From: Nitrogeniibacter aestuarii
GTDB taxonomy: Bacteria > Pseudomonadota > Gammaproteobacteria > Burkholderiales > Rhodocyclaceae
Length of the DNA: 64,000 nucleotides
Assembly (NCBI RefSeq): GCF_017309585.1
Contig: NZ_CP071321.1
Coordinates: 156,335 to 220,334 of the forward strand
Direction of reading: 5' to 3'
Positions 9,390 to 39,338 of the stretch are shown in pieces. Every line of letters begins with the position of its first letter. The first letter of the stretch is position 1. Made by a program: the position numbers and the translations under genes. The notes under the pieces were generated by a model. The model was not told where the DNA came from, did not search any database, and saw only the letters and a list, made by a program, of their open reading frames with translations.

Positions 9390-9602
9390 GGGTGTCTCCC
9401 AATCTCTGGTCTGTGGCCGCTATTGGGTGCGACCTGAAACGTACAGCATGCCACCGTTTTCATGACGGCTCCACCCTGTGCGAAGCAGGGGGATCTGGCG
9501 CCTCTTGCGAGATCATTGAAATGGCATGATTTGCGGCTGTCTGTTTGCCAATGGCATAGTCTCGCGTACCATACAACCCCTCGTGTTTGTCCTGACCTTG
9601 CC

Positions 9603-12560: not shown

Positions 12561-12566
12561 GGCCAG

Positions 12567-13769
12567 ATGGCTTCGGAAGACGAGGGCGCGAAGAAGTTGC
12601 TCACCCCACAGGGCGGCTCCGTCGCCGTGATGGCAAATCCGAGAAATGTCAGTGAGAAGGAGATTCACGACGACAGATTGCTGATCATTCAACGCCTTGA
12701 CGGTTGCTATGGCAATCTCGTTGAGCACATGGCACCAATGCAGGCGGCCTGGGATGCCAACCCCATGGTCGCGTTGGGCGAAGCGGCCATCGACGGTGCC
12801 AGCGCTGGTGTTGGTGACTGGGCCGACGACTTTGCCGACATGTTCGACAAGAAGACGTGGGTCGCGTTGGGGGACAAGTTGGAGCATGCGGCAGGCGCCG
12901 TCTACGACACCACCCGCGAGTATGCGGCGGATGTCTACCAGCGCATCGACGCGCTCTTCGAGAACGCCGACGATACCCTCGCCAACTGGGCATGGTGGCA
13001 AAGCCAGATCGAATCGGCCGAGCAGGCCGTCGTTGACGATCTCCAGCGAAAGTACGAAGCGATGAGGGAAACGGTTGATGACATCGAGGAGGTCATTGCC
13101 ATCGCCCAGCGGGTGTGGGCCTATCGGGACGACATTCTCAACCTCCCTAAGCTGATTGCAGAAGGTGACGCCAAAGCGGTGCAAGCCTTTGTCGACAACA
13201 CACTACCGAAGATCGACAAGGAACTGGCCGATGGCATTCGCAACGACCCGAATTTCTACGTCGTGCTGGAGATCATTCAGGACAATGACAGCGCGCTGGC
13301 CTATCTGAGTTACGTCAGCCTGGCCATCGAAGCCGTGCCGCCCAACTTCTACGCCTACCACGCCGGCAAGGGCGGCGCCTACCTGATGATTGAAGTGGTG
13401 CTGCTGATCGTCACCGCACTGCTATCGGCCGGCACCGTCGCCGCAGCACGCATCGCCGCACTCGGCGCGCGAATTGCCGCCAGCAGCGCCAAGGTCGCCG
13501 GCGTTGCCCGCAAGGTCGAAGCGGCGCAACGCGCCTTCGCCGCCTTTGTCCGCATGCTCGACGACTTCTCGGCCGCCGCCAACCAGCTCCACGCCCTGGG
13601 CGCCAAGCTCAACGTGGCGCGCCAGCGCGGCCTGCGTGTTGCGGGCAGCACAAAAACCACCATCACCGCCCGCCGCGCCGCCATCAAGCGCGACCGCCGC
13701 TGCCGCATCTGCGGCAGCAGCAAACACAGCACACCGCACGGGCGGCTGGGCACGGTCGAGTACGAATAA
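12567..13769 (+). CDS. VgrG-linked hypothetical protein; probable carrier/N-terminal part of a T6SS effector
   Basis: Starts 6 nt after the vgrG stop with RBS CAAGGAG. Hydrophobic/Ala-rich segment near residues 265-330. In the same reading frame as the downstream AHH gene, separated only by TAA at 13767-13769. Confidence 0.5.
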   Translation: MASEDEGAKKLLTPQGGSVAVMANPRNVSEKEIHDDRLLIIQRLDGCYGNLVEHMAPMQAAWDANPMVALGEAAIDGASAGVGDWADDFADMFDKKTWVALGDKLEHAAGAVYDTTREYAADVYQRIDALFENADDTLANWAWWQSQIESAEQAVVDDLQRKYEAMRETVDDIEEVIAIAQRVWAYRDDILNLPKLIAEGDAKAVQAFVDNTLPKIDKELADGIRNDPNFYVVLEIIQDNDSALAYLSYVSLAIEAVPPNFYAYHAGKGGAYLMIEVVLLIVTALLSAGTVAAARIAALGARIAASSAKVAGVARKVEAAQRAFAAFVRMLDDFSAAANQLHALGAKLNVARQRGLRVAGSTKTTITARRAAIKRDRRCRICGSSKHSTPHGRLGTVEYE

Positions 13770-13784
13770 GGAGAAGAAGGCACA

Positions 13785-14462
13785 ATGCTCGGCAACGTAC
13801 TGAAGGACGCCAAGTACCTCAAACGCATCAAGGACGCCACGGACCTGCTCTCCGACCCCGGCCACCCGCGCCACCACGGAATCAAGATGCAGGCGCATCA
13901 TGTGATTTCGGCGGAGGGGGTGAAGAAGTCTGGTCTTGGGAACGATCTCGTTCGATTTGGCTATGACATCAACCTGTTGGACAATCTGGTCTTCATTCCC
14001 TCGACGCTACAGGGCGCGTGCCACTTGGGCGTGCAGCCGCACCGGGGAGATCACAGGGCGCCGGTCGAGGGGGATGAGTTTGATGATGATCGGAAGCGAC
14101 CGGATGACTACCATAGAACGATCGCCAAGCGAGTCAATGAGTTGAAGCGCCTGCTTACCGACAATTGCCCGGCCGAGGATCCGGACCGGCGGCGGACGAT
14201 TCACCAGAAGATGGATGAGATCAGCAAGAAAATTGCGAAACTCATCCGAATCGTCCCGAGTAAAGCTCCTCTGACGAGAGTTGCGAAGCACTTCGGCCCG
14301 ACATCAAAGATCGGCTGCGGCGGGGTCGATTCGATTCCTCGCCACGAAGACCATCCCTGCCCGGTGGAGCGACATCACCACGGTCAGCAAGGCCCCGGCC
14401 AGAAGGACGAGCAAATCACATACCGGAAAGATAAGCCGTATCAGTTGAAGGTGGGACGATGA
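13785..14462 (+). CDS. AHH-family HNH/EndoVII-fold nuclease toxin domain protein
   Basis: A-H-H motif in MQAHHVISAEGVKKSG. Followed by DINLLDNLVFIPST and a His-rich segment (GACHLGVQPHRGDH), as expected for AHH nucleases of polymorphic toxin systems. Stop overlaps the first immunity-like gene (ATGA). Confidence 0.72.
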   Translation: MLGNVLKDAKYLKRIKDATDLLSDPGHPRHHGIKMQAHHVISAEGVKKSGLGNDLVRFGYDINLLDNLVFIPSTLQGACHLGVQPHRGDHRAPVEGDEFDDDRKRPDDYHRTIAKRVNELKRLLTDNCPAEDPDRRRTIHQKMDEISKKIAKLIRIVPSKAPLTRVAKHFGPTSKIGCGGVDSIPRHEDHPCPVERHHHGQQGPGQKDEQITYRKDKPYQLKVGR

Positions 14463-15085
14463 GCGCAGGCAGGTTTGACAATGACTACTATTTTGTCCAC
14501 GAAGTCCCTCACGATGAGCGTCTTCCATACCTGACACCCGATGAAGACACGTCGCGCAAACCCTATACGTCCAAGCGACTCCCGATGCATACCAAACCGT
14601 TGATTTTCCACAACGGCTCCTTGGATTATCAAAAGGCGAACCGCATCACTCCGTACGATCCGCCCCCGGAAATCCTCTTCAGTGGCTCCGACGTTGTCGT
14701 CAAGGACAAGCTGCGCGACAAACTCCTGCCGCTGGAAATTCCCAACCTCGCCATCCAGCCGGCGATCTACATCGACCACAAAAACAACTGGCACGAGGAC
14801 TACTGGTATCTGACATTCACCGAGTTGTTCGATTGCTGGGATCGAGAGAGGTCTTACTACGACCCCGATCCGGTCGATTTCGACGATGTGAAGCTCTACG
14901 AGGTGTACACCTACTCGCTCGACGAAAAGGTGTTGGAAGAAACGCCGCTCGAATCTCGGCGCCTGTTCAAGATGGGTAGCACCACGGAAGGTCCGGTTGT
15001 CGTCCACGTCTCCATTGCAAGCTGGTTCGGACTTAGCGGCGCAGTGCTTGTGCCCATCGCCGAGTATGGGGTGTCATTTCCCTGA
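14459..15085 (+). CDS. putative immunity protein, tandem paralog 1 of 3 (207 aa)
   Basis: Immediately downstream of, and ATGA-coupled to, the AHH toxin gene. Shares the conserved core LPLEIPNLAIQPAIYIDHKNNWHEDYWYLTFTELFDCWDRER with paralogs 2 and 3. No secretion signal. Confidence 0.6.
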   Translation: MSAGRFDNDYYFVHEVPHDERLPYLTPDEDTSRKPYTSKRLPMHTKPLIFHNGSLDYQKANRITPYDPPPEILFSGSDVVVKDKLRDKLLPLEIPNLAIQPAIYIDHKNNWHEDYWYLTFTELFDCWDRERSYYDPDPVDFDDVKLYEVYTYSLDEKVLEETPLESRRLFKMGSTTEGPVVVHVSIASWFGLSGAVLVPIAEYGVSFP

Positions 15086-15112
15086 AGCGAGAGCGGTGTT
15101 GAAGGTCGGACG

Positions 15113-15736
15113 ATGAGCACAGGAAAATTCGATAGCGACTACTACTTTGTTAGAAAAGCGCAAGACGAGCGTTTGCCGTCGTTGACACCCGACGAAGATA
15201 CATCTCGCAAGCCTTATACGTCGGAGCGGCTTCCGATGCATACCAAGCCATTGATCTTCTTCAACGGTGCGTCGGATTTTCAGAAGAGCAATCACATACG
15301 GCCAAGTGACCCGGCTCCAGACATCCTTTTCAGCGGTTCGGATGTCCTCGTCAAAGACGAAGTACGCGATAAACTTCTGCCGCTGGAAATCCCCAACCTC
15401 GCCATCCAGCCTGCCATCTACATCGACCACAAGAACAACTGGCATGAGGACTACTGGTATCTGACGTTCACCGAGTTGTTCGATTGCTGGGATCGTGAGC
15501 GATCGTCATATCGGCCCAAGCCCATCGATTTCGATGGAGTGAAGATCTACAACGTACGTCAATATTCCCTGAACGATGACCTGCTTGACGAAACCCCACT
15601 CGAGTCCAGACGGCTGTTCAAGATGGGTGGCACGCTGGATGGCTTCGTCGTCGTCCATGTCTCCATTGCGAGCTGGTTCGGACTCAGCGGCGCAGTGCTT
15701 GTGCCCATCGCCGAGTACGGGGTGTCATTTCCTTGA
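15113..15736 (+). CDS. putative immunity protein, tandem paralog 2 of 3 (207 aa)
   Basis: Divergent N-terminal ~60 aa and residues ~135-170. Conserved core and C-terminus. Preceded by a 27-nt spacer whose last 17 nt mimic the 3' end of the AHH gene. Confidence 0.6.
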   Translation: MSTGKFDSDYYFVRKAQDERLPSLTPDEDTSRKPYTSERLPMHTKPLIFFNGASDFQKSNHIRPSDPAPDILFSGSDVLVKDEVRDKLLPLEIPNLAIQPAIYIDHKNNWHEDYWYLTFTELFDCWDRERSSYRPKPIDFDGVKIYNVRQYSLNDDLLDETPLESRRLFKMGGTLDGFVVVHVSIASWFGLSGAVLVPIAEYGVSFP

Positions 15737-15763
15737 AGCGAGAGCGGTGCTGAAGGTCGGACG

Positions 15764-16387
15764 ATGAGCACAGGAAAATTCGACGGCGAATACTATTTCG
15801 TGCTGAAGGACAGGGCAGAGGGAATGCCAGAAATGACGCCGGATGAGGACACCGCAAGGAAGGGCTATCGGTTCACTCGGCTTCCGCTGCACACGAAGCC
15901 TCTGATATTTCACAACGGCTCATTGGAGCATCAACGAGCAAATCGAATTAGGCCCATCGACCCGCCTCCCGAAATTCTATTCGATGGCTCCGACGTCCTC
16001 GTCAAAGACGAAGTACGCGACAAACTCCTGCCGCTTGAAATCCCAAACCTCGCCATCCAGCCTGCCATCTACATCGACCACAAGAACAACTGGCATGAGG
16101 ACTACTGGTATCTGACATTCACCGAGTTGTTCGATTGCTGGGATCGAGAGAGGTCTTACTACGACCCCGATCCGGTCGATTTCGACGATGTGAAGCTCTA
16201 CGAGGTGTACACCTACTCGCTCGACGAAAAGGAGTTGGAAGAAACCCCGCTCGAATCTCGGCGCCTGTTCAAGATGGGTAGCACCACGGAAGGTCCGGTT
16301 GTCGTCCACGTCTCCATCGCGAGCTGGTTCGGGCGCAGCGGCGCAGTGCTGGTGCCCATCGTCGAGTACGGGGTGTCATTTCCCTAA
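15764..16387 (+). CDS. putative immunity protein, tandem paralog 3 of 3 (207 aa)
   Basis: C-terminal 150 aa nearly identical to paralog 1. N-terminus distinct. Same junction sequence as paralog 2. Confidence 0.6.
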   Translation: MSTGKFDGEYYFVLKDRAEGMPEMTPDEDTARKGYRFTRLPLHTKPLIFHNGSLEHQRANRIRPIDPPPEILFDGSDVLVKDEVRDKLLPLEIPNLAIQPAIYIDHKNNWHEDYWYLTFTELFDCWDRERSYYDPDPVDFDDVKLYEVYTYSLDEKELEETPLESRRLFKMGSTTEGPVVVHVSIASWFGRSGAVLVPIVEYGVSFP

Positions 16388-17284
16388 GACCGTCTTGGCC
16401 TCCGATTTGGTGCTTCCCTTGGATACAAATTTTCAAGGCTGGATGGAAATTGCTTGGGCCCGAAGACATCCCTGCTCGAAGCCTGCGACGAGTACGTCAC
16501 CTTGCTCAACCTGCGCAACTGGGAAAAGCTTTGCGAGCGCTACGTGACCGAACAGATCTACGTGCACTCAAAGCTGATGGTTGTGGATGACCGGATCGCG
16601 CTCATTGGCAGTGCCAACATCGATGACCGCAGCTTGCTGGGCGAACGCGATTCGGAACTGGCGGTACTGGTGATTGACGACACCCATGAGAAGGCCGACA
16701 TCGGCCTGGGCCGGCAGACGCCGGTGCGCAAGTTTGCGCGGGAACTGCGCATGGACATCTGGAAGAAGCTGTTCGGAATCACCGGCAATGTGCGCCCGGC
16801 CACGCATCTGCAGGCGGCCATCGAACAGCCGGTCAAGCCAGCCAGTTGGAAGGCGATTCAGAAGCAGGCGCGGGAGAATGCCGAGGCGTATGAGAAGGCG
16901 TTTGAGTTTGTTCCGAGGAATTGGGTAGATGAGGTCGAAGGCAGGGTTCCTGCCAAGATCTTGCCCACTTGGGATTCAAGCTCCGACGTGCCTGAGGGAA
17001 TAGCGGCCAATTGGGGAAAGAAAGGCTATCTGAAATCGCCATTACCGTTCCAGTCGGAATTCTGGGGTAAGCCACGTTACAACCCGACCGCCGTGGCCGG
17101 CCTCAACGACATCAAAGGATTCATTACCGCCCTGCCCGTTCACTGGACCGAAGGCGAGAATATCAAGTTTGTGTTCCCGACATCGCTAGTGGTGCAGAAC
17201 GATCGTACACCGGCCGGTACGCCGCTAAAGACCGCTTGGGACGCAACGCAAGAAGACCAAGCTATAACGGACGAACACGTATGA
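16388..17284 (+). pseudogene. Orphan C-terminal fragment of a phospholipase D-family (Tle5-like) T6SS effector; no start codon
   Basis: Frame opens immediately after the TAA of immunity paralog 3, with no ATG/GTG and no RBS. Contains one PLD HKD motif (HSKLMVVDDRIALIGSANIDDRS = HxKx4Dx6GSxN). The first HKD repeat is missing. ATGA overlap with the downstream lipoprotein gene. Confidence 0.65.
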
Positions 17285-18375
17285 GCTACCGGAATATTGC
17301 GATGGCCCTCGGGCTTTGTCTGCCGCTGGGCGCTTGCGCCGACAAGCCTGCAAACCAGACATGGCCAATCGAATGCGTAGGGCGCATGCAGATTTCGTTG
17401 CCGGGCGAGGCCGATCAGGCAGCCTTACCAAGTTCGGCATTCATTGAACAGTTTGCCGCAACTCAGACAAAGCGTATCCGGCACACGTACTCAGATGGGT
17501 CGTACGCTTCGCGGGTCAATTTATATTTTCGCGCCGGCGTGGAAGTCAGTCAAAAACTCAGCAATCAGGAAGTCGCGAATCTGAAGGGGGCCATCAAGGA
17601 GCGAAATATCCGGGTACAGCAGCATGCGAAAGACCAAGGCGGACAAGTGACATATTTGAATACTGGTCCGCTTGAAGGCTCAGTGCTGGTGCGAAGCGAT
17701 GTGTTTTACATCTCTTCCACATTGATATTTGGCCAACATGCGCTGACATGGAAACTTCGCACGGACGAAAAACGCTTTGACGAAGTGAAGGCTTTGGCTA
17801 ACGGTTTGAGCACGAACCTTCGTCCCCGCCCCCTTTTCGACACCCCCCACGAACCTGGCGTCTGCCTGCCCTATGCCTTCATCCGCGACGACGGCACCAC
17901 CCCGCACAGCATCGCCATGAGCTACCGGCTCAATGATCACCCGGACATCGTCATCAATCTGGAGAGCAGTAGCGCAAGCCCCACACCGAAAAAGGGCGAC
18001 CATGCCCGCCCGGATACCGTCACAGACGAGACGCGCACGAGTGATTTCTGGAACCAGCAGATGACATGGCTGCACACGTTCAAAACCCACTGGAAGCGCC
18101 CATTCTCCATGCGCAGTGTGGACATCGCCGGTCGTAAAGGCACGGCATCGTTCGTGGAAGTGGTGCGCGAAAAAGGCGGTCCCACCGACCACATCTATCT
18201 CGTGGTCGCGCGCGGCAATCCGGACGCCCCCGAGGCTGAGCCGGACATCCGCTTGTTCGTCGAGCAGACGCAGGAGAACGCCACCAAGCGCGGCATTACG
18301 CCGCTGACGCAGGACGAGGTGCAAGCGCTGGCCGAGCAGATCACTGCGAGCGTGTCGATCAGGCCCACTCTCTGA
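17281..18375 (+). CDS. lipoprotein, putative periplasmic immunity protein (Tli-like) for the PLD effector
   Basis: Signal peptide plus lipobox (MALGLCLPLGAC). Translationally coupled to the PLD fragment. Matches the usual tle-tli arrangement. Confidence 0.55.
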   Translation: MSYRNIAMALGLCLPLGACADKPANQTWPIECVGRMQISLPGEADQAALPSSAFIEQFAATQTKRIRHTYSDGSYASRVNLYFRAGVEVSQKLSNQEVANLKGAIKERNIRVQQHAKDQGGQVTYLNTGPLEGSVLVRSDVFYISSTLIFGQHALTWKLRTDEKRFDEVKALANGLSTNLRPRPLFDTPHEPGVCLPYAFIRDDGTTPHSIAMSYRLNDHPDIVINLESSSASPTPKKGDHARPDTVTDETRTSDFWNQQMTWLHTFKTHWKRPFSMRSVDIAGRKGTASFVEVVREKGGPTDHIYLVVARGNPDAPEAEPDIRLFVEQTQENATKRGITPLTQDEVQALAEQITASVSIRPTL

Positions 18376-18519
18376 TCGCTTACCGCAAGTCTTCTGGACC
18401 ATGCAAACCCTCGTGGGTGGCCGTAAGAGCCTGCTCAACGGCATTCGCAGGGGGTTGAAGGCACTGCTGGTTGCAGTAGGCTGGCAAACCGTTGCGCCAA
18501 AAGATCGATGAAGAAGTTA

Positions 18520-28822: not shown

Positions 28823-30469
28823 TCACGGCGTCTGCCCGGTGTTTGCGGGGCCTTGAGCGATGTCGGACCAGGCCAGCTCGAACTTCGCCAGATACTTGCG
28901 CAGGCGGTCGGCGTCGTTGACCACCTTCCGCTCGGTGCGCGAGATGTCGAACAGCTGTCGGCCGGCCTCCGACAGGCTCTTGCAGCGACGGCATTCGGCC
29001 ACTACTGCGGCCAGTTGAAGCCGGTCGAAACGATCGAGCGCATCGAGCCGATCCCCCAGCAGGGCGCGCAGACCGGCGGCGTCCGTCTCGCCGGCCTCCA
29101 CCGCCCACGCGTGTCTGAGGCGCTCGATTTCCTCTGCCACAATCGCCTCGTTGATCCGCCCGGCATCCGCCAGGGTCGCCATACGCGTGACCGAGGCCGA
29201 CAGCTCGCGAAAGTTGCCGCTCCAGCGCGCCTCGGGCGAGGTGGCAAAGCGCAGCCAGGCGCGTTTGGCCTCCACGTTGAAGCGCACTGCCTTGCCCAGT
29301 TCGCGGGCATGGCGCTCGAGTTCGAAATCCAGGTTGGGTTCGATGTCCTCGACCCGTTCGGCCAGGCCCGGCAGGGGGAAGGTCCACAGGTTGATCCGGG
29401 CATAGAGGTCTTCGCGGAATTTGCCCTCGCGCACCCATTGGCGCAGGTCGCGGTGGGTGCCGGCGATGAGCATGAAGTCGCTGCTCACCTCGGTGTCGCC
29501 GCCAAAGGGAAAGAAGTGCTTCTCTTCAATCGCCTTGAGCAGCATCGCCTGCTCGTCCAGGCCCAGCTCGCCGATTTCGTCCAGAAACAGCATGCCGTCG
29601 TGGGCCGCCCGCAGCAGGCCGGCGCGCTCGGTCTGCGCACCGGTAAAAGCCCCCTTCACATGGCCGAACAGGGCCGACATGGCCATGTCGCCGCGCAGGG
29701 TGGCGCAGTTCACCTCAACAAATCGCCCCTTCACCTGGTGACGGCGCTGGCGCAGTTCGAAAATGCGTCGTGCCAGAAAGCTCTTGCCCGCGCCGGTGGG
29801 CCCTACCAGCAGCACCGGCGCGGTGGAGCGCACCGCCACCTTCTCGATCTGCTCGATGGTGCGGTTGAAGGTGGCGTTGCGGGTGGCGATACCGCTCTTG
29901 AGGAAAGAGACGGTCTCCTCCGCCTCGCGGGCAAAGCGGGTGGCAATGGCGTCGTAGCGGGACAGATCCAGATCGATGACGGTGTGGGTGCCGCGCACGT
30001 CGCGGGGTTCGCCTTCGTTGGCCTCAGTGCGGCGCTTGCGCGGTGGCGCGGTCTGAAGCAGCCGCGCGGGCAGATAGTGCGCCTCGGTGAGCAGAAACCA
30101 GCAGATCTGCGCCACATGGGTGCCGGTGGTGATGTGGACGAGGTAGTCCTCGGCCTCGGTGTCGAAGGCATAGCCACGGGCGAAATCGTGCAGCGCGCCG
30201 TAAACCTCGCCGAAGTCCCACGGGTCGCGCAGCTCGATCTCCACCGAGCGCACCTCCGTCGCGGGCGACACCTCGGCAATGTCGAGCTTCACCTTGCTGG
30301 CCAGCCCCCGATTGCGGGCGTCGTGGATCAACTCGAGCCGATGCACCGGCAGGCCGTCCTGCTGGCACAGCCCCACCGTGGGTCGCCATTTCTGCCAGCG
30401 TTGCTGCCCCCGGCCACCGTAGTCGAGCACGGTGCCGAGAAAGCCGATCACGACGTTCTTGCGGTTCAT
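28823..30469 (-). CDS. rtcR: RtcR, sigma54-dependent transcriptional activator with N-terminal CARF domain
   Basis: N-terminal MNRKNVVIGFLGTVLDYGG (CARF-type). AAA+ sigma54 interaction module with Walker A GPTGAGKS and GAFTGA motif (HVKGAFTGA). C-terminal HTH. Divergent from an rtcB-containing operon. Confidence 0.85.
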   Translation of the reverse strand: MNRKNVVIGFLGTVLDYGGRGQQRWQKWRPTVGLCQQDGLPVHRLELIHDARNRGLASKVKLDIAEVSPATEVRSVEIELRDPWDFGEVYGALHDFARGYAFDTEAEDYLVHITTGTHVAQICWFLLTEAHYLPARLLQTAPPRKRRTEANEGEPRDVRGTHTVIDLDLSRYDAIATRFAREAEETVSFLKSGIATRNATFNRTIEQIEKVAVRSTAPVLLVGPTGAGKSFLARRIFELRQRRHQVKGRFVEVNCATLRGDMAMSALFGHVKGAFTGAQTERAGLLRAAHDGMLFLDEIGELGLDEQAMLLKAIEEKHFFPFGGDTEVSSDFMLIAGTHRDLRQWVREGKFREDLYARINLWTFPLPGLAERVEDIEPNLDFELERHARELGKAVRFNVEAKRAWLRFATSPEARWSGNFRELSASVTRMATLADAGRINEAIVAEEIERLRHAWAVEAGETDAAGLRALLGDRLDALDRFDRLQLAAVVAECRRCKSLSEAGRQLFDISRTERKVVNDADRLRKYLAKFELAWSDIAQGPANTGQTP

Positions 30470-30805
30470 GAGTTTCGCCAGAAAGATAAAAAACTAGCCA
30501 TTTGTATCTGATTTTAGCGACCGTGTTAAGCGCGTACATGACGAATGGCAATGCCGATAAAAAATTTTGTCTATTGAAAACATGAGTTTGCGATCTTTTT
30601 GAATCCTCTGTCGTATTTCTGGCACGCCCTTCGCAGTACAGAGATCAACCGCGGAATCACCGCTGGAGTACGGGTTGAGGTTCTGGATGCCTCGCCGGTG
30701 CGCTCCCGCCGGATGACGTTGTGTGGGGCGTATGCCGCCTCGGTGAAGAAACGGTGTGCTGGATGCGTGTTGGTACGTTGATTCAGGTTCGACTCCTGAC
30801 ATCCC

Positions 30806-30880
30806 CGTTCGGTAGCTCATTTGGATAGAGCAGCAGATTTCGATCTGTTGGTGGCGGGTTCGAATCCCGCTCGAACACCA
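30806..30880 (+). ncRNA. tRNA-like element (tRNA mimic or degenerate tRNA) with 3' CCA
   Basis: Canonical D-arm (TA-GCTC-ATTTGGATA-GAGC). Canonical T-arm (GCGGG-TTCGAAT-CCCGC). 6-7 bp acceptor pairing (CGTTCGG / TCGAACA) followed by encoded CCA. The anticodon arm is aberrant: CAGAT-TTCG-ATCTG with a UUCG-type tetraloop, or a 6-nt loop. Confidence 0.5.
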
Positions 30881-31126: not shown

Positions 31127-31390
31127 GGGGTCATCCCTCGCCATTCGCTGGATCGCGTTGTGCTCATGGCGCTTCGCTGGAACATCTTGAGGCTCGTCGC
31201 ATTGTGCGCATCTGCCTTTTGGAGGGATTCGCAGTAGCCATGAGCACAACCCTGCGGGCTCACCCCTGCTGGGCTCCATGGCCGCGTTGCGACTCCTTGA
31301 CTGGGGGCCACCCAGTCTGCGTCCCCGCGCCTTGCCCTGCAGCCCAGCAGGAGTGATCGCGCCAACGAATGGCGAGGGATGACCCCTCCC
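31127..31390. ncRNA. Candidate long-stem structured RNA (Y-RNA-like architecture) between rtcR and the band-7 gene
   Basis: 23-bp perfect inverted repeat: GAGGGGTCATCCCTCGCCATTCG at 31127-31149 and CGAATGGCGAGGGATGACCCCTC at 31368-31390. Extended by GATCGCG/CGCGATC. Internal hairpin GTGCTCATGGC...GCCATGAGCAC. No convincing ORF. Confidence 0.35.
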
Positions 31391-31426
31391 GGCCACAAGC
31401 CGAAAACAGATGATTGGAGAATAAAA

Positions 31427-32575
31427 ATGAACATGTTGTGGAAGCGATTCGTGGTGAACCAGACCCAGCGCGCGCTGTTGCTGCGCGAGGGCAACTTCGA
31501 GCGTGTGCTCGAGCCGGGTGTGCATCGTGTGATGGACCCGTTCGACCGCTACGCCATCCAGTGCTGGAGCGTGCAGGCGCCGCACTTTGATCACCCGCTG
31601 GCTGAAACCCTGCGTCGTGAGCGGGGCGCGGTGATCGAACAGTACTTCGATGTGATGGACACCAATGAAGATCAGGTGGGCCTGCGCTTCGAGAACAAGA
31701 TGCTGGTCGAGATCGTGCCGCCGGGCGCCCGTCGCCTGTACTGGAAAGGCCCGGCCGAGGTGCGCTTCGAGGTGGTCGAGCTGGCCGAAGGCGCCGAGGT
31801 GCCGGCGCGTGTGGCGCGTCTGCTGAACCAGTCCAACCTGCGTAGCCGCGTGGTGACCGGGCTGGCCGGGGTGTTGAGCCTGCAAGTGCCGGCCTGGCAT
31901 CTGGGTGTGCTGAAGATCGACGGCAAGGTCGAGCGCCTGCTGGAGCCTGGTTTCGTGGCCTTCTGGCGCTTCAACCGCGAGGTGAGCGTCGAGCTGGTCG
32001 ATACCCGTCTGCAAACCTTGGAAGTGAGCGGGCAGGAGATCCTGACCCGCGACAAGGTCGGCCTGCGGGTGAACCTTGCCGCCACCTGGCGCTTTGCCGA
32101 CGTGCTGGCTGCGTTTGCCGCCACACCGAAGCCGGTGGAGCACCTGTACCGCGAACTGCAGTTCGGTTTGCGGGCGGCGGTGGGCACCCGGTCGCTCGAT
32201 GAGTTGCTGGAAAACAAGCAGCTCATCGACGAGGTGGTGAGCCAGCACCTGGCCCAGAAGCTGGCCGGGCAGGGCATCGAGGTGCATAGCGTGGGCGTGC
32301 GGGACATCGTTCTGCCGGGCGAGATGAAGACGATTCTCGCCCAGGTGGTCGAGGCGGAGAAATCCGCCCAGGCGAACGTGATCCGTCGCCGCGAAGAAAC
32401 CGCCGCCACCCGCTCGCTGCTCAACACCGCCAAGGTGATGGAAGAGAACCCGACGGCCCTGCGCCTGAAGGAGCTCGAAACCCTGGAGCGTGTGGCCGAG
32501 CGTATCGACCGCATCTCGGTGTTCGGTGGCCTGGACCAGGTGCTGAACGGCCTGGTGAGCATCAAGTCCGGGTGA
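31427..32575 (+). CDS. SPFH/band-7 (stomatin/prohibitin-like) domain protein
   Basis: 382 aa from MNMLWKRF with RBS GGAGAATAAAAATG. Band-7 core. Characteristic C-terminal coiled-coil (IRRREETAATRSLLNTAKVMEENPTALRLKELETLERVAE). Confidence 0.8.
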   Translation: MNMLWKRFVVNQTQRALLLREGNFERVLEPGVHRVMDPFDRYAIQCWSVQAPHFDHPLAETLRRERGAVIEQYFDVMDTNEDQVGLRFENKMLVEIVPPGARRLYWKGPAEVRFEVVELAEGAEVPARVARLLNQSNLRSRVVTGLAGVLSLQVPAWHLGVLKIDGKVERLLEPGFVAFWRFNREVSVELVDTRLQTLEVSGQEILTRDKVGLRVNLAATWRFADVLAAFAATPKPVEHLYRELQFGLRAAVGTRSLDELLENKQLIDEVVSQHLAQKLAGQGIEVHSVGVRDIVLPGEMKTILAQVVEAEKSAQANVIRRREETAATRSLLNTAKVMEENPTALRLKELETLERVAERIDRISVFGGLDQVLNGLVSIKSG

Positions 32576-32913: not shown

Positions 32914-33321
32914 ATGAAAAGCAACAAACAACGCCGCGCCGAAATCATGGCGGCCCGACGCCAGCGCAAGCGGCTGCGGACGGTGGCGACTCAACTCGAG
33001 CAGCGCCGCGTGCCGCTCGCGGCCAACGCCCTGCCGGTGGACGCGGCCGCGCTGATGCCCACCAACAGTTACGGCGCACCCGTGTGGCAGACGCGCGGTT
33101 TCTATCTGGACCTTGCCTTCACCTGCAAGGACTGCGGTGCCGAGTGCCTGTGGACGGCGCAGCGACAGAAGTGGTGGTATGAAGTGGCCAAGGGCCACCC
33201 CGATTCCACCGCCGTGCGATGCAAACCCTGCCGCGCCAAAGAGCGCGCCAGAAAAGAGACGGCCCGCCGTGTGGCGCTGGCCGGTCTGCAAAAGAAAATG
33301 GAAGCAAAGGAACACCCATGA
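32914..33321 (+). CDS. zinc-ribbon domain protein (135 aa), translationally coupled to rtcB
   Basis: CKDCGAEC...RCKPCRA four-Cys ribbon. Basic N-terminus. Stop overlaps the rtcB ATG (ATGA). Possible weak sigma54-like GG-N10-GC element (AGGGGAAAACGTTGCC) about 20 nt upstream. Confidence 0.6.
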   Translation: MKSNKQRRAEIMAARRQRKRLRTVATQLEQRRVPLAANALPVDAAALMPTNSYGAPVWQTRGFYLDLAFTCKDCGAECLWTAQRQKWWYEVAKGHPDSTAVRCKPCRAKERARKETARRVALAGLQKKMEAKEHP

Positions 33322-34553
33322 AGATCGAACAACAACACGATCACGACATCCTGCACGCGGGACAGGGCGCGCCCATCAAGCTGTGGACCCACGGCGTGCC
33401 GGTCGAAGACGATGCCCGCCAGCAACTCATCAACACCGCGCAGATGCCCTTCATCTACAAGCATCTGGCCGTGATGCCGGATGTGCATCTGGGCAAGGGC
33501 TCGACCATCGGCAGCGTGATCCCCACCCGTGGCGCCATCATCCCGGCGGCCGTCGGTGTGGATATCGGCTGCGGCATGATGGCCGCCCGCACCACGCTCA
33601 CCGCGGCCGACCTGCCGGACAACCTGCACGGCCTGCGCACCGCCATCGAAAAGGCCGTGCCGCACGGGCGCAACATGACCCGAGGCAAGCGCGACCAGGG
33701 GAGCTGGGGTCGCCCGCCCGAGCTGGTGGATGCTTACTGGAAGGCGCTGCTGCCGGGCTTCAACCGCATTACCGAAAAGGCGCCGCGTTTGAAGAACACC
33801 AACAACCATAACCATTTGGGGACGCTCGGTACGGGCAACCACTTCATCGAAGTGTGCCTGGATGAGGCCGAGCGCGTGTGGATCATGCTGCATTCGGGTT
33901 CGCGCGGTGTGGGCAACGCCATCGGCCGCCACTACATCGAACTGGCCCAGGCCGACATGCGCCAGCACATCGCCAATCTGCCGGACCGCGACCTCGCCTA
34001 CTTCGAAGAAGGCTCGCAGCACTTCGACGACTATGTCGAGGCCGTGGGCTGGGCGCAGGACTACGCCCGCAAGAACCGCGAAGTGATGATGCAGCACGTG
34101 ATCGCCGCCACCCGTACCGTGATCGAAAAGCCCTTCCAGGCGGATGTGGAGGCGGTGAACTGCCACCACAACTACGTGCAGCGCGAAACCCACTTCGGGC
34201 ACAAGGTGCTGGTGACGCGAAAAGGCGCTGTGTCCGCCCAGAAAGGCCAGCTCGGCATCATCCCCGGCTCCATGGGCGCACGCAGCTACATCGTGCGCGG
34301 CAAGGGCAACCCGGAGAGCTTCTGCTCATGCAGCCACGGAGCAGGACGCACCATGAGCCGCAACGCCGCCAAGAAGCGTTTCTCGATCGAAGACCAGATT
34401 CGCGCGACCGAAGGCGTGGAATGCCGCAAGGATGCATCGGTGATTGACGAAATCCCGATGGCGTATAAGGATATCGACGCCGTCATGGCCGCGCAGGACG
34501 CGCTGGTGGAGGTGGTGCACACCTTGAAGCAGGTGGTGTGTGTGAAGGGGTGA
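33318..34553 (+). CDS. rtcB: RNA-splicing ligase RtcB (3'-phosphate/5'-hydroxyl RNA ligase)
   Basis: 411 aa. HLGKGSTIGSVIPT, GVDIGCGM, HNHLGTLGTGNHFIE, MLHSGSRGVGNAIG, NCHHNY and AHGAGR motifs of RtcB. Confidence 0.9.
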   Translation: MKIEQQHDHDILHAGQGAPIKLWTHGVPVEDDARQQLINTAQMPFIYKHLAVMPDVHLGKGSTIGSVIPTRGAIIPAAVGVDIGCGMMAARTTLTAADLPDNLHGLRTAIEKAVPHGRNMTRGKRDQGSWGRPPELVDAYWKALLPGFNRITEKAPRLKNTNNHNHLGTLGTGNHFIEVCLDEAERVWIMLHSGSRGVGNAIGRHYIELAQADMRQHIANLPDRDLAYFEEGSQHFDDYVEAVGWAQDYARKNREVMMQHVIAATRTVIEKPFQADVEAVNCHHNYVQRETHFGHKVLVTRKGAVSAQKGQLGIIPGSMGARSYIVRGKGNPESFCSCSHGAGRTMSRNAAKKRFSIEDQIRATEGVECRKDASVIDEIPMAYKDIDAVMAAQDALVEVVHTLKQVVCVKG

Positions 34554-34583
34554 TAGCTAAAATAAATTTGCTCTGGGGCTAGT

Positions 34584-35948
34584 ATGGATAATCTGAATTA
34601 TTCCGAATCTGATTTTGGTGAAAGGTTAAACAAAGTACTTTCAGCGTCAAAGCCGATAAACAGCATTGAATTTTTAAAAGGTAGAGATAGAGAGCTAGAA
34701 ACCATAAAACGCGCTCTATACGCTGACGGGAGGCACGTTTTTATCTTCGGAGATCGAGGTGTCGGGAAGAGTTCACTGGGCCAAACTGCTGCGATCGCAT
34801 ACCAAAGTTCGGATGCAGAACCAATCTTCGTTTCGGGGTCACCTGACGATTCATTCTCATCCATAGTGGCCAACATAGTGGCGCGAGCGATTAGCAAGCC
34901 GCGTACGAAAAGCGTAAAAAATTCGAAAAAAATTTCGCTTTCTTTTAGAGGTCTTTCGATTGGTGAAGGGGAAGATGTCAGCCCAATCGATATCGAATCT
35001 AACATCCAAACAATTGGTGATGCTGTTGAACTGCTCAGGCAGGCTGGAAAAGAGCACTCAGCTAAGCCTATCATTGTAATTGACGAGTTTGATACGATTT
35101 CCAGTCTCGATGAGAGAAACAAGTTCTCATATCTTCTCAAGCAGTTGGGAGATCAAGCAGTAAACATCAAATTCATTTTTACTGGAATTGCTCGGTCTCT
35201 AGATGAATTATTAGGAGTGCATCAATCGGCGTATCGGCAACTCGAGACAGTTGAACTGCCTCGCCTTGGCTGGGACGCTCGCCGCGAAATCGTAACTTCA
35301 ACTGCGGCTGCATTCAATATCACTGTGGATAACGATGTAAATTGGCGCATATGTATGGTGAGCGATGGGTATCCATACTACATACATCTTGTGTTGGAAA
35401 AGATTTTATGGGCAGCTTACATTCTAGAGCCTGATATCTCGGAGATTGGATGGGATTTGTTTCATGAAGGTTTGCACGAAGCCATTTTGGCAACAAGTGC
35501 AGAGTTGAAGCGGCCTTACGAAAAAGCGGTATTGCACAGAGAAGAATCATACGAAGATGTTGTATGGGCAACCGCTGATCATGACGATTTAATGAGGTCG
35601 TTGAATGATATGTATGAATCGTACAGATTGGTTGTAGAAAAAAGGAATGATGCGCGCGAAGTTTTAGACCGGGGGAGATTTTCCGCGCTGGTGCGTAAGC
35701 TCAAAGACGCAAGCTACGGTTCTGTACTTACAAGTGTTGAGTCGCGTAAAGGCTGGTATTCCTACAGAGAAAAAATGCTACGCGGATTCGTTCGAATGCA
35801 AGCGCACGTTAACGGTGTCGAGTTGACTGGTGATCGACCAACGCCGAGACAGACGCAGCACGTTGGGAACGCGCGAAAGGGTTACAAAGGCGCAGCTTTG
35901 CCGCGCGGTGTTCGCCAGCGTTCAAAAATCGGAAGTTGGGACGATTGA
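34584..35948 (+). CDS. P-loop NTPase of the AAA_16/Arch_ATPase (ORC/Cdc6-like) type, encoded on a low-GC island
   Basis: Walker A (FIFGDRGVGKSSL) preceded by LKGRDRELETIKRAL. Walker B (PIIVIDEFD). 454 aa. Codon and GC content sharply lower than the flanks (AT-rich from 34555 to ~36540). Confidence 0.8.
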   Translation: MDNLNYSESDFGERLNKVLSASKPINSIEFLKGRDRELETIKRALYADGRHVFIFGDRGVGKSSLGQTAAIAYQSSDAEPIFVSGSPDDSFSSIVANIVARAISKPRTKSVKNSKKISLSFRGLSIGEGEDVSPIDIESNIQTIGDAVELLRQAGKEHSAKPIIVIDEFDTISSLDERNKFSYLLKQLGDQAVNIKFIFTGIARSLDELLGVHQSAYRQLETVELPRLGWDARREIVTSTAAAFNITVDNDVNWRICMVSDGYPYYIHLVLEKILWAAYILEPDISEIGWDLFHEGLHEAILATSAELKRPYEKAVLHREESYEDVVWATADHDDLMRSLNDMYESYRLVVEKRNDAREVLDRGRFSALVRKLKDASYGSVLTSVESRKGWYSYREKMLRGFVRMQAHVNGVELTGDRPTPRQTQHVGNARKGYKGAALPRGVRQRSKIGSWDD

Positions 35949-35964
35949 AAGCGGTGTTGCGAAA

Positions 35965-36040
35965 CAGGGGGCAGACCTCGGTATTTAACTTAATTAGCCA
36001 GGTTCGAATGTTGAGCGCCTAAAACCGAGCTCTGCCCCCT
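35965..36040. repeat. Long-stem hairpin downstream of the ATPase gene (possible terminator or element boundary)
   Basis: CAGGGGGCAGACCTCGGT ... ACCGAGCTCTGCCCCCT forms a ~16-bp stem around a 41-nt AT-rich loop that contains GGTTCGAAT. Followed by TATTTCGG. Confidence 0.35.
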
Positions 36041-36083
36041 ATTTCGGCTTGTGTGAAGGGGTGAGAGTTTCTGAGGGTTATGA

Positions 36084-36524
36084 ATGCACGTACTAAAAGA
36101 GGGTAAAGAAGCGTTCCTTGAGTTCTTGAGAAATTTGACGCCGCAAGCTTTGCTTTTGGGTATAGCATTGGTCTCGGGGCGCAATCTCACGCTCACGTGC
36201 TGCTACCCAGAAAATGCGGCACAAACTCTTGCGGCGTTCGGATTCGGTGGGCTCGCTCTGCTTGCAGCATGGTCGAGTTCAGCTCTATTTATTGAAAAAT
36301 ACTTCGTTGCAGCTGACGATATGGAGGGAATTTCGCTGCAACTTAAGCGGGATGGATTAGTCGGAATTAATTATATGAAAGAGCTACTCAAACACGCATG
36401 CCGAAGACACAAAATTCTTTTCGTTGAGGCAATTTTCATTGTTTTCGTAGTTGAGTTCGCGATTGCAGCAGTATTTGTAGTGGCAATTGCAAATGCAGCG
36501 GGAATTGTTCGACTAATGAAATAG
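36084..36524 (+). CDS. small membrane protein (146 aa) on the low-GC island
   Basis: 2-3 predicted TM helices (ALLLGIALVS, LAAFGFGGLALLAAW, FIVFVVEFAIAAVFVVAIANAA). Low-GC codon usage like the upstream ATPase. No homolog recognisable by eye. Confidence 0.45.
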   Translation: MHVLKEGKEAFLEFLRNLTPQALLLGIALVSGRNLTLTCCYPENAAQTLAAFGFGGLALLAAWSSSALFIEKYFVAADDMEGISLQLKRDGLVGINYMKELLKHACRRHKILFVEAIFIVFVVEFAIAAVFVVAIANAAGIVRLMK

Positions 36525-36769
36525 CCCGCGTAGGGCGCATTAACCGAAGGCCAATGCGCCGCATGTCTTCCGCGAAGCGTCTTCGACTCGACATACCCTC
36601 TTTCCAGGGAGCCCTGCACGCTCAACCCCGCTGACAAGGTCATTGACCCACTCGAGGTGGGGCGTTGTGGCGAATTCGCGCATGAAAAAGGCGACAGCCT
36701 CAACGGATAGCGCATTGCTGCCCTGCACCAAATTCGCGAGAATAAAGGCCACCAAGTTGGCAGGGGACG

Positions 36770-38038
<1,269 letters not shown>

Positions 38039-38402
38039 GCGTCCCCTACGCCCCTCGGTCATTCGAGAGACGCAGCTTTCCGCGGGTCAGACGACCCGTA
38101 TTTCCTCGGGCGCGCTGGAAGCGCGATGCTCGCCATCAACCTGAGCGAAGGTGAAGTCGAAGTGGGCGCGTTGGGCCCCGGAGCCCATGCGCTGTGCCGG
38201 GCTCGTGGCGGGCACCGTGGCCGACCCTGCGTTGCTTGTCGAAATCAATGCGCTGCTGGCAGTGGAGATGGCGGCGGACGAGAGCGGGGCGCTGGACGCG
38301 TTTTTCTGTCGGTTGGTGACATCGGACTGGAAATCCGAATATCGGGCGTAGTCGGCAGCGCGGCGTCGGGCACGCAGATTCAATGCTGACACGGAAAACC
38401 AT

Positions 38403-38894
38403 ATGGCATATCATGGGCAGCCGTCATTGAAATCAGGAGGCGATCCGATGCCGACGCCGCAATCCCCGACACTTTCGAACCCCATCAATAACGGGAGCCG
38501 CAGGGGGAGTGACAAGTGGGGTTCAGGCCATTTCGCTGCGCCGCGCGGAAGTCGACAACACAATGGTGTTGATATTTCTGCTTCGTTAGGTGAGGCCGTG
38601 CTTTCTCCGATCGATGCGAAGGTCGTTCGCGTTGCCTATCCGTATGCCACGGATTTGTCTTTGACCGGCATCTTGCTGGAGGGCGTGGGCCGCCATGCGG
38701 GTTTCACGGTAAAGATTTTCTACATGTCACCCGAGCAATCGAAAATCGGCAAACAGGTGTCTGCAGGCGAACGCATCGGCGCGGCTCAGAGTCTGCTCAC
38801 CAAGTATCCTGGCATCAAAAACCATATCCACCTCGAAGTACGCCAGAATGGTGTCGTGATTGACCCCCAGTCCCTGATGCCCACTTTGCACTGA
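38403..38894 (+). CDS. M23/LytM-family metallopeptidase domain protein, no signal peptide
   Basis: HxGxD-type motif (QHNGVDI) and HxH motif (HIHLEV). 163 aa. Hydrophilic N-terminus without a Sec signal. Confidence 0.75.
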   Translation: MAYHGQPSLKSGGDPMPTPQSPTLSNPINNGSRRGSDKWGSGHFAAPRGSRQHNGVDISASLGEAVLSPIDAKVVRVAYPYATDLSLTGILLEGVGRHAGFTVKIFYMSPEQSKIGKQVSAGERIGAAQSLLTKYPGIKNHIHLEVRQNGVVIDPQSLMPTLH

Positions 38895-38897
38895 CCC

Positions 38898-39338
38898 ATG
38901 AAGAAGCTCCTCATTGCCATCGGAATGGCGGCGCTGCTGTCCGCGTGCCAGACGACCGGTGATTTCTCGGGTTCTCTGGAAGCGCGACGCTCGGCGGTGG
39001 ATGAGGCGGGTGCGCCCTGCGTTCGCGTTCATGTGGCCGGCGACTACCGGCTGGTGGAAAATGCGTGCCCCGGTGCGGATGCGCGTCGCATCACGCTCAT
39101 CGATCAGGCCGGTGAGCGCTACTACGCGTCATACGACCCGACATTCACGCGCTGGGCGTGGACAGAGGGGTGCGCGACCGAGGGCGCTTGCGCGTACACA
39201 TTGAAGGTACGAGAGGGCGCCATCACTGCGTTCACCTATCGCTTTGCCATCAACCTGAGCGAAGGTGAAATCGATGTGGAGGTGGCGGGCGATACCTTGG
39301 TGGTCGTCCGCAAACAGATCGTCGATCAGCCGTCCTGA
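38898..39338 (+). CDS. lipoprotein (146 aa), candidate immunity partner of the upstream M23 peptidase
   Basis: Signal peptide plus lipobox (AALLSAC). 4 nt after the M23 stop. Six Cys residues in the mature part. Confidence 0.6.
   Translation: MKKLLIAIGMAALLSACQTTGDFSGSLEARRSAVDEAGAPCVRVHVAGDYRLVENACPGADARRITLIDQAGERYYASYDPTFTRWAWTEGCATEGACAYTLKVREGAITAFTYRFAINLSEGEIDVEVAGDTLVVVRKQIVDQPS

Follow-up and report, generated by a model that had tools for sequence, protein, structure and literature searches.

The 64-kb stretch of Nitrogeniibacter aestuarii DNA analysed here (64,000 nucleotides of contig NZ_CP071321.1, positions 156,335 to 220,334; hereafter the window) contains an RtcR/σ54-type RNA-repair operon with rtcB, the gene for the 411-residue RNA 3′-phosphate ligase (33318–34553, plus strand; Pfam RtcB, 5e-131). 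The rtcB stop codon is followed directly by about 2 kb of low-GC DNA carrying two genes in the same orientation, one for a solitary AAA+ ATPase of 454 amino acids (34584–35948) and one for a small membrane protein of 146 amino acids (36084–36524). Sliding GC plots placed the drop, from about 0.64 to 0.43–0.52, at the rtcB stop (34553) and the return between 36450 and 36750, at around 36540–36600. This agrees with a first-pass annotation of the sequence, which had reported a low-GC island of about 2 kb after rtcB with an abrupt fall at the stop and recovery near 36540. The segment 34555–36540 has a GC content of 0.459, as compared to 0.638 ± 0.031 for the other 2-kb windows (minimum 0.541; z −5.9), and is the most deviant in composition of the whole 64 kb. 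Each of the two genes has an overall GC content of 0.45; at third codon positions (GC3) the values are 0.43 for the ATPase and 0.42 for the small open reading frame (ORF), against 0.85 for rtcB, for the regulatory gene rtcR and for the gene of an SPFH protein. Since both GC and GC3 deviate, the DNA after rtcB is foreign. Composition, a discrete boundary with a direct repeat and a sporadic distribution are all those of a horizontally acquired islet. Both ORFs are real genes, for the ATPase has family matches and the 146-residue protein has 12 homologues. The more general rule that any fall in GC after rtcB denotes foreign cargo was abandoned: Photorhabdus and Xenorhabdus loci show such a fall although rlaP directly follows. 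Many of the first ORFs after rtcB in high-GC loci are spurious.

A 15-nt direct repeat divides the islet

The left junction of the islet is marked by the sequence TGTGTGAAGGGGTGA, which constitutes the last four codons and the stop codon of rtcB (34539–34553) and recurs at 36050–36064, between the ATPase gene and the gene of the small membrane protein. The repeat, found by a repeat search and lying on the plus strand in both places, is exact over 15 nt and matches at 17 of 18 nt with the flanking bases; these are its only two copies in the window. When the 50-nt junction was compared with simulated 2.5-kb downstream regions, only 0.07% of trials gave an exact match of 15 nt or longer. At 79 related loci the end of the local rtcB was never repeated within 8 kb over 12 nt or more. 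The second copy was also considered as the remnant of a second rtcB gene; this was rejected, for the similarity stops and there is none further upstream.

The two copies bound a cassette of 1,496 bp (34554–36049, plus strand; GC 0.45) composed of a 30-nt leader, the ATPase gene and, at its 3′ end, a long imperfect hairpin (35960–36046). The hairpin arms, of 26 nt each (35960–35985 and 36021–36046), are 88% complementary and enclose a 35-nt loop; the predicted RNA fold has a free energy of −41.9 kcal/mol (z −2.1) and lacks a U-tract. Candidate identities as a known RNA or as a repeated mobile end were discarded, as the hairpin has no Rfam match and no copy in IMG/VR and is not kept after seven homologues of the ATPase gene. 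The first-pass annotation had put a hairpin with a 16-bp stem at the distal end of the island; the long hairpin sits instead between the two genes, and the distal edge has a short palindrome only.

Without the cassette, about 30 nt would separate the rtcB stop from the small gene, which is preceded by a GAGGG ribosome-binding site. Because the repeat brackets the ATPase gene and the hairpin only, the cassette was placed later, between rtcB and the small gene. The arrangement thus indicates that the 146-codon gene is the older cargo, once the immediate neighbour of rtcB, and that the ATPase cassette was inserted subsequently at the very stop codon of rtcB, whose last 15 nt were duplicated in the process. 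The island is thus not the single unit of the earlier description; the repeat splits it into two insertions. A circular intermediate with a copy of the rtcB 3′ end could have delivered the cassette, through Campbell-type or site-specific recombination. What reads as an independent parallel of insertion at the rtcB stop with target duplication was found in a metagenome contig (L113; comparison loci are cited by L numbers), where an imperfect (88%) duplication of about 97 nt of the rtcB 3′ end, with copies at 1100–1196 and 1811–1907 (oriented), surrounds a 0.6-kb low-GC insert with a minus-strand gene for an LprI-like lipoprotein. Interpretation of the cassette as an integron cassette was rejected: by eye the hairpin does not end in paired R″/R′ core sites (RYYYAAC/GTTRRRY) and the repeat is rtcB coding sequence; no intI was noticed among the inspected ORFs, and no attC/intI search was run.

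At the distal junction of the islet (36523–36560, plus strand), where GC begins to recover, the motif AGCCCGCGTAGGGCG precedes the palindrome GGCGCATT…AATGCGCC. The palindrome, a short GTAG plus 8-bp element at 36530–36560, resembles repetitive extragenic palindromic (REP) sequences, and a REP reading was considered. GCGTAGGGCGCAT recurs just once more in the window, at 17374; that copy is within an ORF and seems to be a coincidence. A 15-nt form of the motif, AGCCYGYGTAGGSCG, occurs 0–8 nt after the stop of the cargo gene at three loci, namely in the window (36523–36537), in a Rhodocyclaceae metagenome-assembled genome (MAG; L018, 12513–12527) and in Denitromonas iodatirespirans (L016, 12141–12155). 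The three cargo genes are mutually unrelated, and all of them follow rtcB in Rhodocyclales. The motif may represent the old right edge of the slot or, alternatively, a common cassette end.

The ATPase belongs to a conserved AAA+ family

The product of the cassette gene matches AAA_16 (9e-11), ATPase_2, nSTAND1, AAA_22 and AAA of Pfam above the curated cut-offs, and the 100% identical N. aestuarii protein entry is annotated as an AAA family ATPase. The Walker A (GDRGVGKSS, residues 56–64) and Walker B (DEFD, residues 167–170, within VIDEFD at 165–170) motifs are invariant in 41 homologues. The identification in the first-pass annotation of an AAA_16-like P-loop NTPase of 454 residues was thus confirmed. 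Besides the two Walker motifs, the structural model contains the five-stranded core of AAA+ P-loop NTPases and, in line with the above-threshold match to ATPase_2 (PF01637), the base, lid and C-terminal winged helix of Orc1/Cdc6-like proteins. As modelled, therefore, the protein has an AAA+ fold of the ATPase_2/Orc1-Cdc6 type with intact Walker motifs and no fused effector. Past the winged helix, a tail of about 40 residues (approximately 415–454; window 35826–35945) is predicted to be disordered (predicted local distance difference test, pLDDT, about 50) and carries in close homologues the conserved sequence GNARxGYxGPxxPxGVR; the tail may serve as an interaction or regulatory peptide.

The family is large, with 495 clusters at 50% identity (E < 1e-30), and conserved over its whole length: mean column identity is 65% over 41 sequences, the far C-terminus included. 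Because the full-length hits among the 150 best measure about 415–465 residues, with one of 576, fused effectors appear to be rare at most. The protein corresponds to phrog_6841 (1.8e-86), a PHROG without assigned function, and no description of the family was found in the literature searched. Searching the PDB with the family profile returned only P-loop-level matches, to Lon, and a fold search of BFVD only clamp-loader-type AAA+ proteins. In PADLOC-DB 2.0 and NCBIfam 20.0 the best hits were mad8 (5e-4, residues 46–89), PtuA (8e-3), DS8 (2.3e-5; 22 bits, for a cut-off of 790) and Sll1717 (5.9e-4; 19 bits against 75), all of them local to the P-loop.

ATPase homologues reside on mobile elements

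Homologues of the ATPase are scattered among Burkholderia, Herbaspirillum, Yersinia plasmids, phages and other taxa. A set of 22 loci, whose ATPases are 37–67% identical, was used to survey their surroundings. In an element of Burkholderia multivorans the gene adjoins an integrase, a relaxase, a PAAR toxin cluster and RelB/ParE toxin–antitoxin genes, and in Herbaspirillum it lies between transposases or insertion sequences and integrases. Elsewhere it follows H-NS genes beside a tRNA gene, or is accompanied by a resolvase together with RT-trypsin and ResIII/RE_endonuc genes, or by MmeI, DUF4365 and Abi_C; the family is thus met beside restriction and abortive-infection genes as well as on mobile elements. 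Further homologues are borne on conjugative plasmids of Burkholderia (including B. cenocepacia), Paraburkholderia and Cupriavidus. Sixty-three Yersinia plasmid records carry one; in pMT1 of Y. pestis CO92 it comes after parAB and is 38% identical. As for phages, gp30 of mycobacteriophage Kevin1 is a homologue located between the lysis genes and the integrase and repressor genes. In IMG/VR, one prophage (L162) has the gene directly downstream of a cI-like HTH_3/Peptidase_S24 repressor, and another (L166) between the gene for antiterminator Q and the next late genes. Another IMG/VR homologue (L170, 5968–7372) is split into two ORFs of 269 and 167 codons and is probably a pseudogene. Locations of these kinds are classic ones for accessory genes expressed from prophages and for genes of defence or exclusion.

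For 35 loci, the ORFs lying up to 2.5 kb from the ATPase gene were all clustered. Among the 22 whose homologues are at or above 37% identity, the only neighbour families in common were backbone genes of prophages closely related to each other. From these comparisons the ATPase emerges as a well-defined family of about 450 residues that travels on mobile elements without a conserved partner.

Such a distribution might also suit a selfish gene, with a role in replication, partition or target selection (Orc/Cdc6-like or TnsC/MuB-like), left stranded after rtcB without a function for the host. We regard this as rather unlikely. No transposase operon or conserved replication module ever accompanies the gene, and in the annotated prophages it occupies accessory positions, next to the cI-like repressor or Q, and not a place among replication genes. 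Moreover, the intact gene, its invariant catalytic residues and the degree of column identity given above argue for selection in each host.

The small membrane protein is unlinked to the ATPase elsewhere

The 146-residue protein belongs to a rare family with an invariant N-terminal FLEFLRNLTP. Of its 12 homologues, the nearest four align over the full length at 45–49% identity, the others being 31–48% identical; the model is all-helical (pLDDT 81). Two clear hydrophobic segments and a weaker one are present, which bears out the earlier prediction of two to three transmembrane helices. No match was obtained in Pfam, PADLOC, NCBIfam or PHROG.

The first-pass annotation had proposed that the two proteins constitute a module, the ATPase being the sensor and the membrane protein the effector of one abortive-infection or defence system acquired as a unit. 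An NTPase paired with a membrane protein is a common architecture among defence systems. Here the two are neighbours with a common orientation and equally low GC and GC3, and both assemblies of the species have both of them. The two-gene system is nonetheless very unlikely. No homologue of the small protein was detected by tblastn at seven independent ATPase loci (55–67% identity), and no AAA_16 ATPase is found at three loci of the small protein (Massilia sp. METH4 and two metagenome contigs); the ATPase has no recurring neighbour, and in N. aestuarii itself the repeat of the rtcB end and the strong hairpin separate the two genes. The idea of a module was therefore given up. The small membrane protein would then be an accessory gene, with a role unrelated to that of the ATPase.

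In Massilia sp. METH4 (L011, 5324–7417) a gene for a σ54 enhancer-binding protein is located about 0.7 kb upstream of the small-protein homologue, which adjoins a contractile-injection-system cluster; the likeness in σ54 setting to N. aestuarii may be coincidence.

Unrelated cargo genes follow rtcB in other genomes

The position occupied by the islet was inspected in other genomes, and further cases were sought in a metagenome scan with a pattern for the rtcB 3′ end. In D. iodatirespirans a nearly identical rtcB end is followed, after a gap of 4 nt, by a low-GC gene for an uncharacterised 306-residue protein. The Rhodocyclaceae MAG, whose rtcB end is likewise nearly identical, has at this place (L018, 11259–12512) a low-GC gene for a 417-residue HATPase_c plus DUF4325 protein that matches the N-terminal part of DrmA in PADLOC (2.4e-41). 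In L136 an AbiJ/Abi_C-like gene (8781–9524, oriented; Abi_C 4.4e-20, AbiJ 7.9e-23) is lodged between rtcB and rtcA of a complete rtcR–SPFH–rtcB operon. The N-terminus of Druantia DruH follows rtcB in L127 (92–1000; 1.1e-46), a second GHKL-ATPase resembling, like that of L018, the N-terminal part of DrmA is found in L121 (474–1532), and L145 has a ParA-like ATPase after rtcB; in L156, L157, L158 and, from the genome set, L021 the cargo is uncharacterised. Altogether, unrelated cargo follows rtcB in about a dozen of the 131 loci with enough downstream sequence, and in four the cargo matches defence models. Cargo genes are on the same strand as rtcB and start 4–70 nt after its stop. These comparisons suggest that the 3′ end of rtcB is a recurrent site for cargo inside the RtcR/σ54 operon. 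We found no description of such a hotspot in the literature searched.

The host operon is broken downstream of rtcB

The gene for the presumptive regulator, rtcR (28823–30469, minus strand), is divergent from the operon and was recognised as an ORF whose orthologues encode a σ54 enhancer-binding activator with an RtcR/CARF-type N-terminus; the copy in a second N. aestuarii assembly (L093) matches RtcR and Sigma54_activat of Pfam, and the window gene is 67–73% identical to the rtcR genes that adjoin rtcB in relatives. In the region between rtcR and the operon, the sequence TGGCACGCCCTTCGCA (30620–30635, plus strand) departs by one mismatch from TGGCAC-N5-TTGCW and is a candidate σ54-type promoter, likely to mark the start of the operon transcript; it is a pattern match only, and such matches are no commoner in the window than expected by chance. 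The operon is headed by a YrlA-like or tRNA-like RNA (30756–30879, plus strand; Rfam, ARAGORN), which lies outside the islet. The part at 30806–30879 scores 47 bits as a tRNA in Rfam and has an abnormal anticodon loop according to ARAGORN, while the YrlA match (30756–30860; 30 bits, E 2e-4) is below the gathering score. No Ro/rsr gene was noticed near this RNA. There follow, on the plus strand, a gene for an SPFH/Band-7 protein (31379–32575; Band_7 2.8e-33), found in synteny with rtcR and rtcB at no fewer than 17 related loci, and a gene for a zf_Tbcl treble-clef zinc finger protein (32914–33321; zf_Tbcl 1.6e-13), whose stop overlaps the rtcB start and which is conserved upstream of rtcB in 10 loci. 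The order rtcR–SPFH–zf_Tbcl–rtcB recurs in Chitinimonas, Chitiniphilus, Pseudomonas sp. 21, Accumulibacter and others. RtcB itself is 89% identical to that of Cognatazoarcus halotolerans, the nearest one fetched, whose flanks are not syntenic. The second N. aestuarii assembly has the identical order of rtcR, SPFH, zf_Tbcl, rtcB, ATPase and small genes.

Many relatives have rlaP (PF10127, 1.1e-92) next after rtcB, and then rtcA (RTC, 1.5e-79), an order described for Pseudomonas (PMC12776372). In the window a relic of rlaP was recognised 3.6 kb downstream of the rtcB end of the islet. It is a 66-codon ORF (38151–38351, plus strand; Pfam RlaP, E 0.033) in which 34 residues (38184–38285) are 59% identical to residues 191–224 of the RlaP protein of L017 (tblastn, E 1e-5); matches to it were also obtained in the RlaP genes of 35 fetched loci, each of these genes lying at least about 0.6 kb after rtcB. 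Thus, of the features of an RtcR-regulated rtc operon, the window retains rtcR, the σ54-like site (as a pattern match), rtcB and a vestige of rlaP, with no RtcA match anywhere in the 64 kb. The relic indicates that an ancestral rtcB-rlaP(-rtcA) operon was broken here, and therefore that the whole of the DNA from 34554 to about 38150 is secondary. The first-pass annotation had the islet landing exactly where rtcA is expected; the site is indeed in an rtc operon, but the next gene expected is rlaP, and neither rlaP nor rtcA is present within 10 kb downstream of rtcB in about half of the 79 related loci.

Between the islet and the relic lie a spacer without recognisable coding content (36561–36769) and a gene for a (PE)n-repeat protein (36770–38038, plus strand). 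A gene fragment had previously been suggested on the minus strand of the spacer (36540–36770). This was not substantiated: the ORF has no homologue in a search of 5.8 billion proteins or in 180 fetched loci, and for the same reason it was not accepted as the relic of an integrase. The (PE)n-repeat protein has a weak J-domain match (Pfam DnaJ 6.8e-6; 26.5 bits, cut-off 27.8). Its gene has a native-like GC (GC3 0.70), contains a 12-nt tandem repeat (36974–37243) and, since it falls between rtcB and the rlaP relic, is secondary at its position. A homologue (36% identity) adjoins a truncated rtcR in an Aromatoleum MAG (L020, 7599–8333). The following segment, 38040–38400, is a mosaic of gene debris: a 62-nt copy (38071–38132, 81% identity) of the 5′ end of a lipoprotein gene (38898–39338), a second piece of the same gene (an INLSEGE stretch) and then the rlaP relic. 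A gene for an M23 peptidase (38403–38894) occupies the place of rtcA.

The state of the locus invites the thought that the islet is neutral junk, imported DNA without function and decaying like rlaP. In support of this, rtcA is lost, lipoprotein-gene fragments are duplicated nearby, and one viral homologue of the ATPase is split into two ORFs. Against it, both ORFs of the islet are full-length with all the invariant family residues intact, and the arrangement is identical in two assemblies. We consider it unlikely.

Alternatively, the ATPase, and perhaps the small protein, could have been recruited to RNA repair in replacement of RlaP and RtcA, for example as an RNA-binding chaperone for RtcB. 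The ATPase gene is in the operon, promoterless and 30 nt from rtcB, and rtc operons do recruit varied accessories. These include SPFH and zf_Tbcl proteins and, in the interval from rtcB to rlaP-rtcA of several genera, a HEAT-repeat protein (446–531 residues) and/or a protein of about 200 residues with an N-terminal LRxRLxxAGCVFEF (L019, L023, L026, L035, L036, L049, L062, L073). The latter genes, initially listed as inserts, were dropped from that list as they recur across genera; some rtc operons thus seem to have conserved accessories of these two uncharacterised kinds. Yet the ATPase is absent from about 140 other rtcB loci, no homologue locus examined is near rtcB or an RNA-repair gene, and the composition marks a recent import. 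A role in RNA repair is accordingly very improbable.

Other features of the window

A second region of lower GC (0.51–0.57), at 12500–18400, is toxin/immunity-like. It encodes a 225-residue protein with an AHH motif (13785–14462), three tandem paralogues of about 207 residues (14459–16387) and a phospholipase-D-like C-terminal fragment (16454–17284).

Interpretation

We lean towards the view that the islet consists of two independently acquired, promoterless single-gene cargos stacked 3′ of rtcB in a decayed RtcR/σ54 operon. Because only 30 nt separate the ATPase start from rtcB, with no promoter-like or terminator-like site in between, we propose that both genes would be transcribed by read-through from the RtcR-dependent promoter. 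The ATPase would act alone and give the mobile elements that carry it a single gene for exclusion or defence. Its context points this way: restriction and abortive-infection genes among the neighbours of homologues, accessory positions in prophages, and defence-type cargo after rtcB in other genomes. On the model of Orc/Cdc6, TnsC and MuB, it could be an ATP-dependent, nucleic-acid-binding switch: by assembling on the DNA of an incoming phage or plasmid, it would keep that DNA from replicating or becoming established. Of the interpretation offered in the first-pass annotation, foreign DNA in an RtcR-type operon and a possible link of the ATPase to defence are retained, and the sensor–effector module is not.

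A number of observations weigh against this picture. No integrase or recombinase accompanies the cassette, the ATPase gene being the sole ORF between the repeats; nor is there a recombinase next to att sites, as an integrase-borne integrative element would have. The empty site that had been expected from a comparison with relatives was not found: none of 80 loci from an RtcB genome scan shares the downstream flank, and the second assembly carries the same insert. The PADLOC search put forward earlier gave no better support, since neither protein matches a defence model beyond P-loop-only hits, and for the ATPase this extends to every catalogued anti-phage model in PADLOC-DB 2.0 and NCBIfam 20.0. 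Several homologue contexts contain no recognisable defence gene and are uninformative. The ATPase has no effector domain, so that how its binding would harm an invader is conjecture. As for expression, the hairpin after the ATPase gene may stop transcription before the small gene. Inducibility is likewise uncertain, because rtcA is missing from the window and, according to a published report (PMC9650030), RtcR activation needs RtcA in addition to RtcB.

A bolder proposal is that the rtcB stop is a docking site for promoterless defence cassettes under RNA-damage control, the AbiJ-like, DruH and GHKL-STAS genes and the present ATPase being such cassettes, switched on when cleaved tRNA signals an attack, and that the solitary ATPase is a new, effector-less anti-phage or anti-plasmid system, acting through ATP-dependent assembly on the DNA of the invader. 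We hold this to be doubtful in both its parts. Most likely, the islet is an ordinary, though neatly resolved, pair of horizontally acquired cargo genes. If the ATPase does protect, a compact single-gene, effector-less AAA+ system would join the catalogue of defences; its family is widespread, on plasmids that include pMT1 of Y. pestis and in prophages of mycobacteria and enterobacteria. If the rtcB slot is real, it would link a CARF-controlled RNA-damage response to the expression of defence genes. Should neither idea hold, the locus is a decaying operon into which horizontal transfer has brought an islet of an ordinary kind.

Comparison with known systems

Among proteins of known structure, the ATPase_2 (PF01637) members PABY2304 (2qen) and SSO1545 (2fna) are only about 15% identical to the ATPase, and as they have no known function themselves, no mechanism is gained from the likeness. 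The present family differs from them in its own conserved C-terminal extension and disordered basic/aromatic tail, and in being bacterial and mobile. Identity to the Orc1/Cdc6 initiators (2qby, 1fnn, 1w5s, 2v1u) is 13–16%. Unlike these, the ATPase has no origin context and no replication genes alongside; the lack of a conserved replication neighbour at the 22 loci and the accessory positions in prophages speak against an initiator function. STAND/Avs proteins are tripartite, whereas the ATPase, with 454 residues and a P-loop some 50 residues in (Walker A at residue 56), has neither an N-terminal effector nor a C-terminal repeat sensor. Its nSTAND1 match covers positions 16–212 of a 379-position profile, the STAND/Avs fold neighbours rank below the ATPase_2/ORC group, and no Avs model of PADLOC is matched beyond the P-loop. 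With regard to TnsC and MuB, the ATPase loci have no transposase, TnsB/TniQ or MuA nearby in support of such a role, and Pfam TniB is reached only with E 0.024.

The positions of the prophage-borne homologues, after a cI-like repressor or Q, recall those of prophage accessory genes, of which rexAB downstream of λ cI is an example. Likewise, the cargo after rtcB varies from genome to genome and includes AbiJ-like and DruH genes, as in core defence hotspots. In comparison with the core defence hotspots of Pseudomonas aeruginosa (PMC10250203), the cargo here is promoterless and enclosed in an operon, within 4–70 nt of the rtcB stop, and two of the cases show duplicated rtcB 3′ ends on either side of the cargo. 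Integron cassettes share with the ATPase cassette the promoterless single ORF followed by an imperfect inverted repeat, behind a resident promoter; they differ in their 7-nt core site, in place of which there is here a 15-nt repeat of rtcB coding sequence. Finally, in CoCoNuT systems of Type II and Type III-A a CARF-containing RtcR homologue adjoins McrBC-type defence genes and is proposed to regulate them (PMC11090510), whereas the locus described here is a bona fide rtcR–rtcB RNA-repair operon with unrelated cargo downstream of rtcB.

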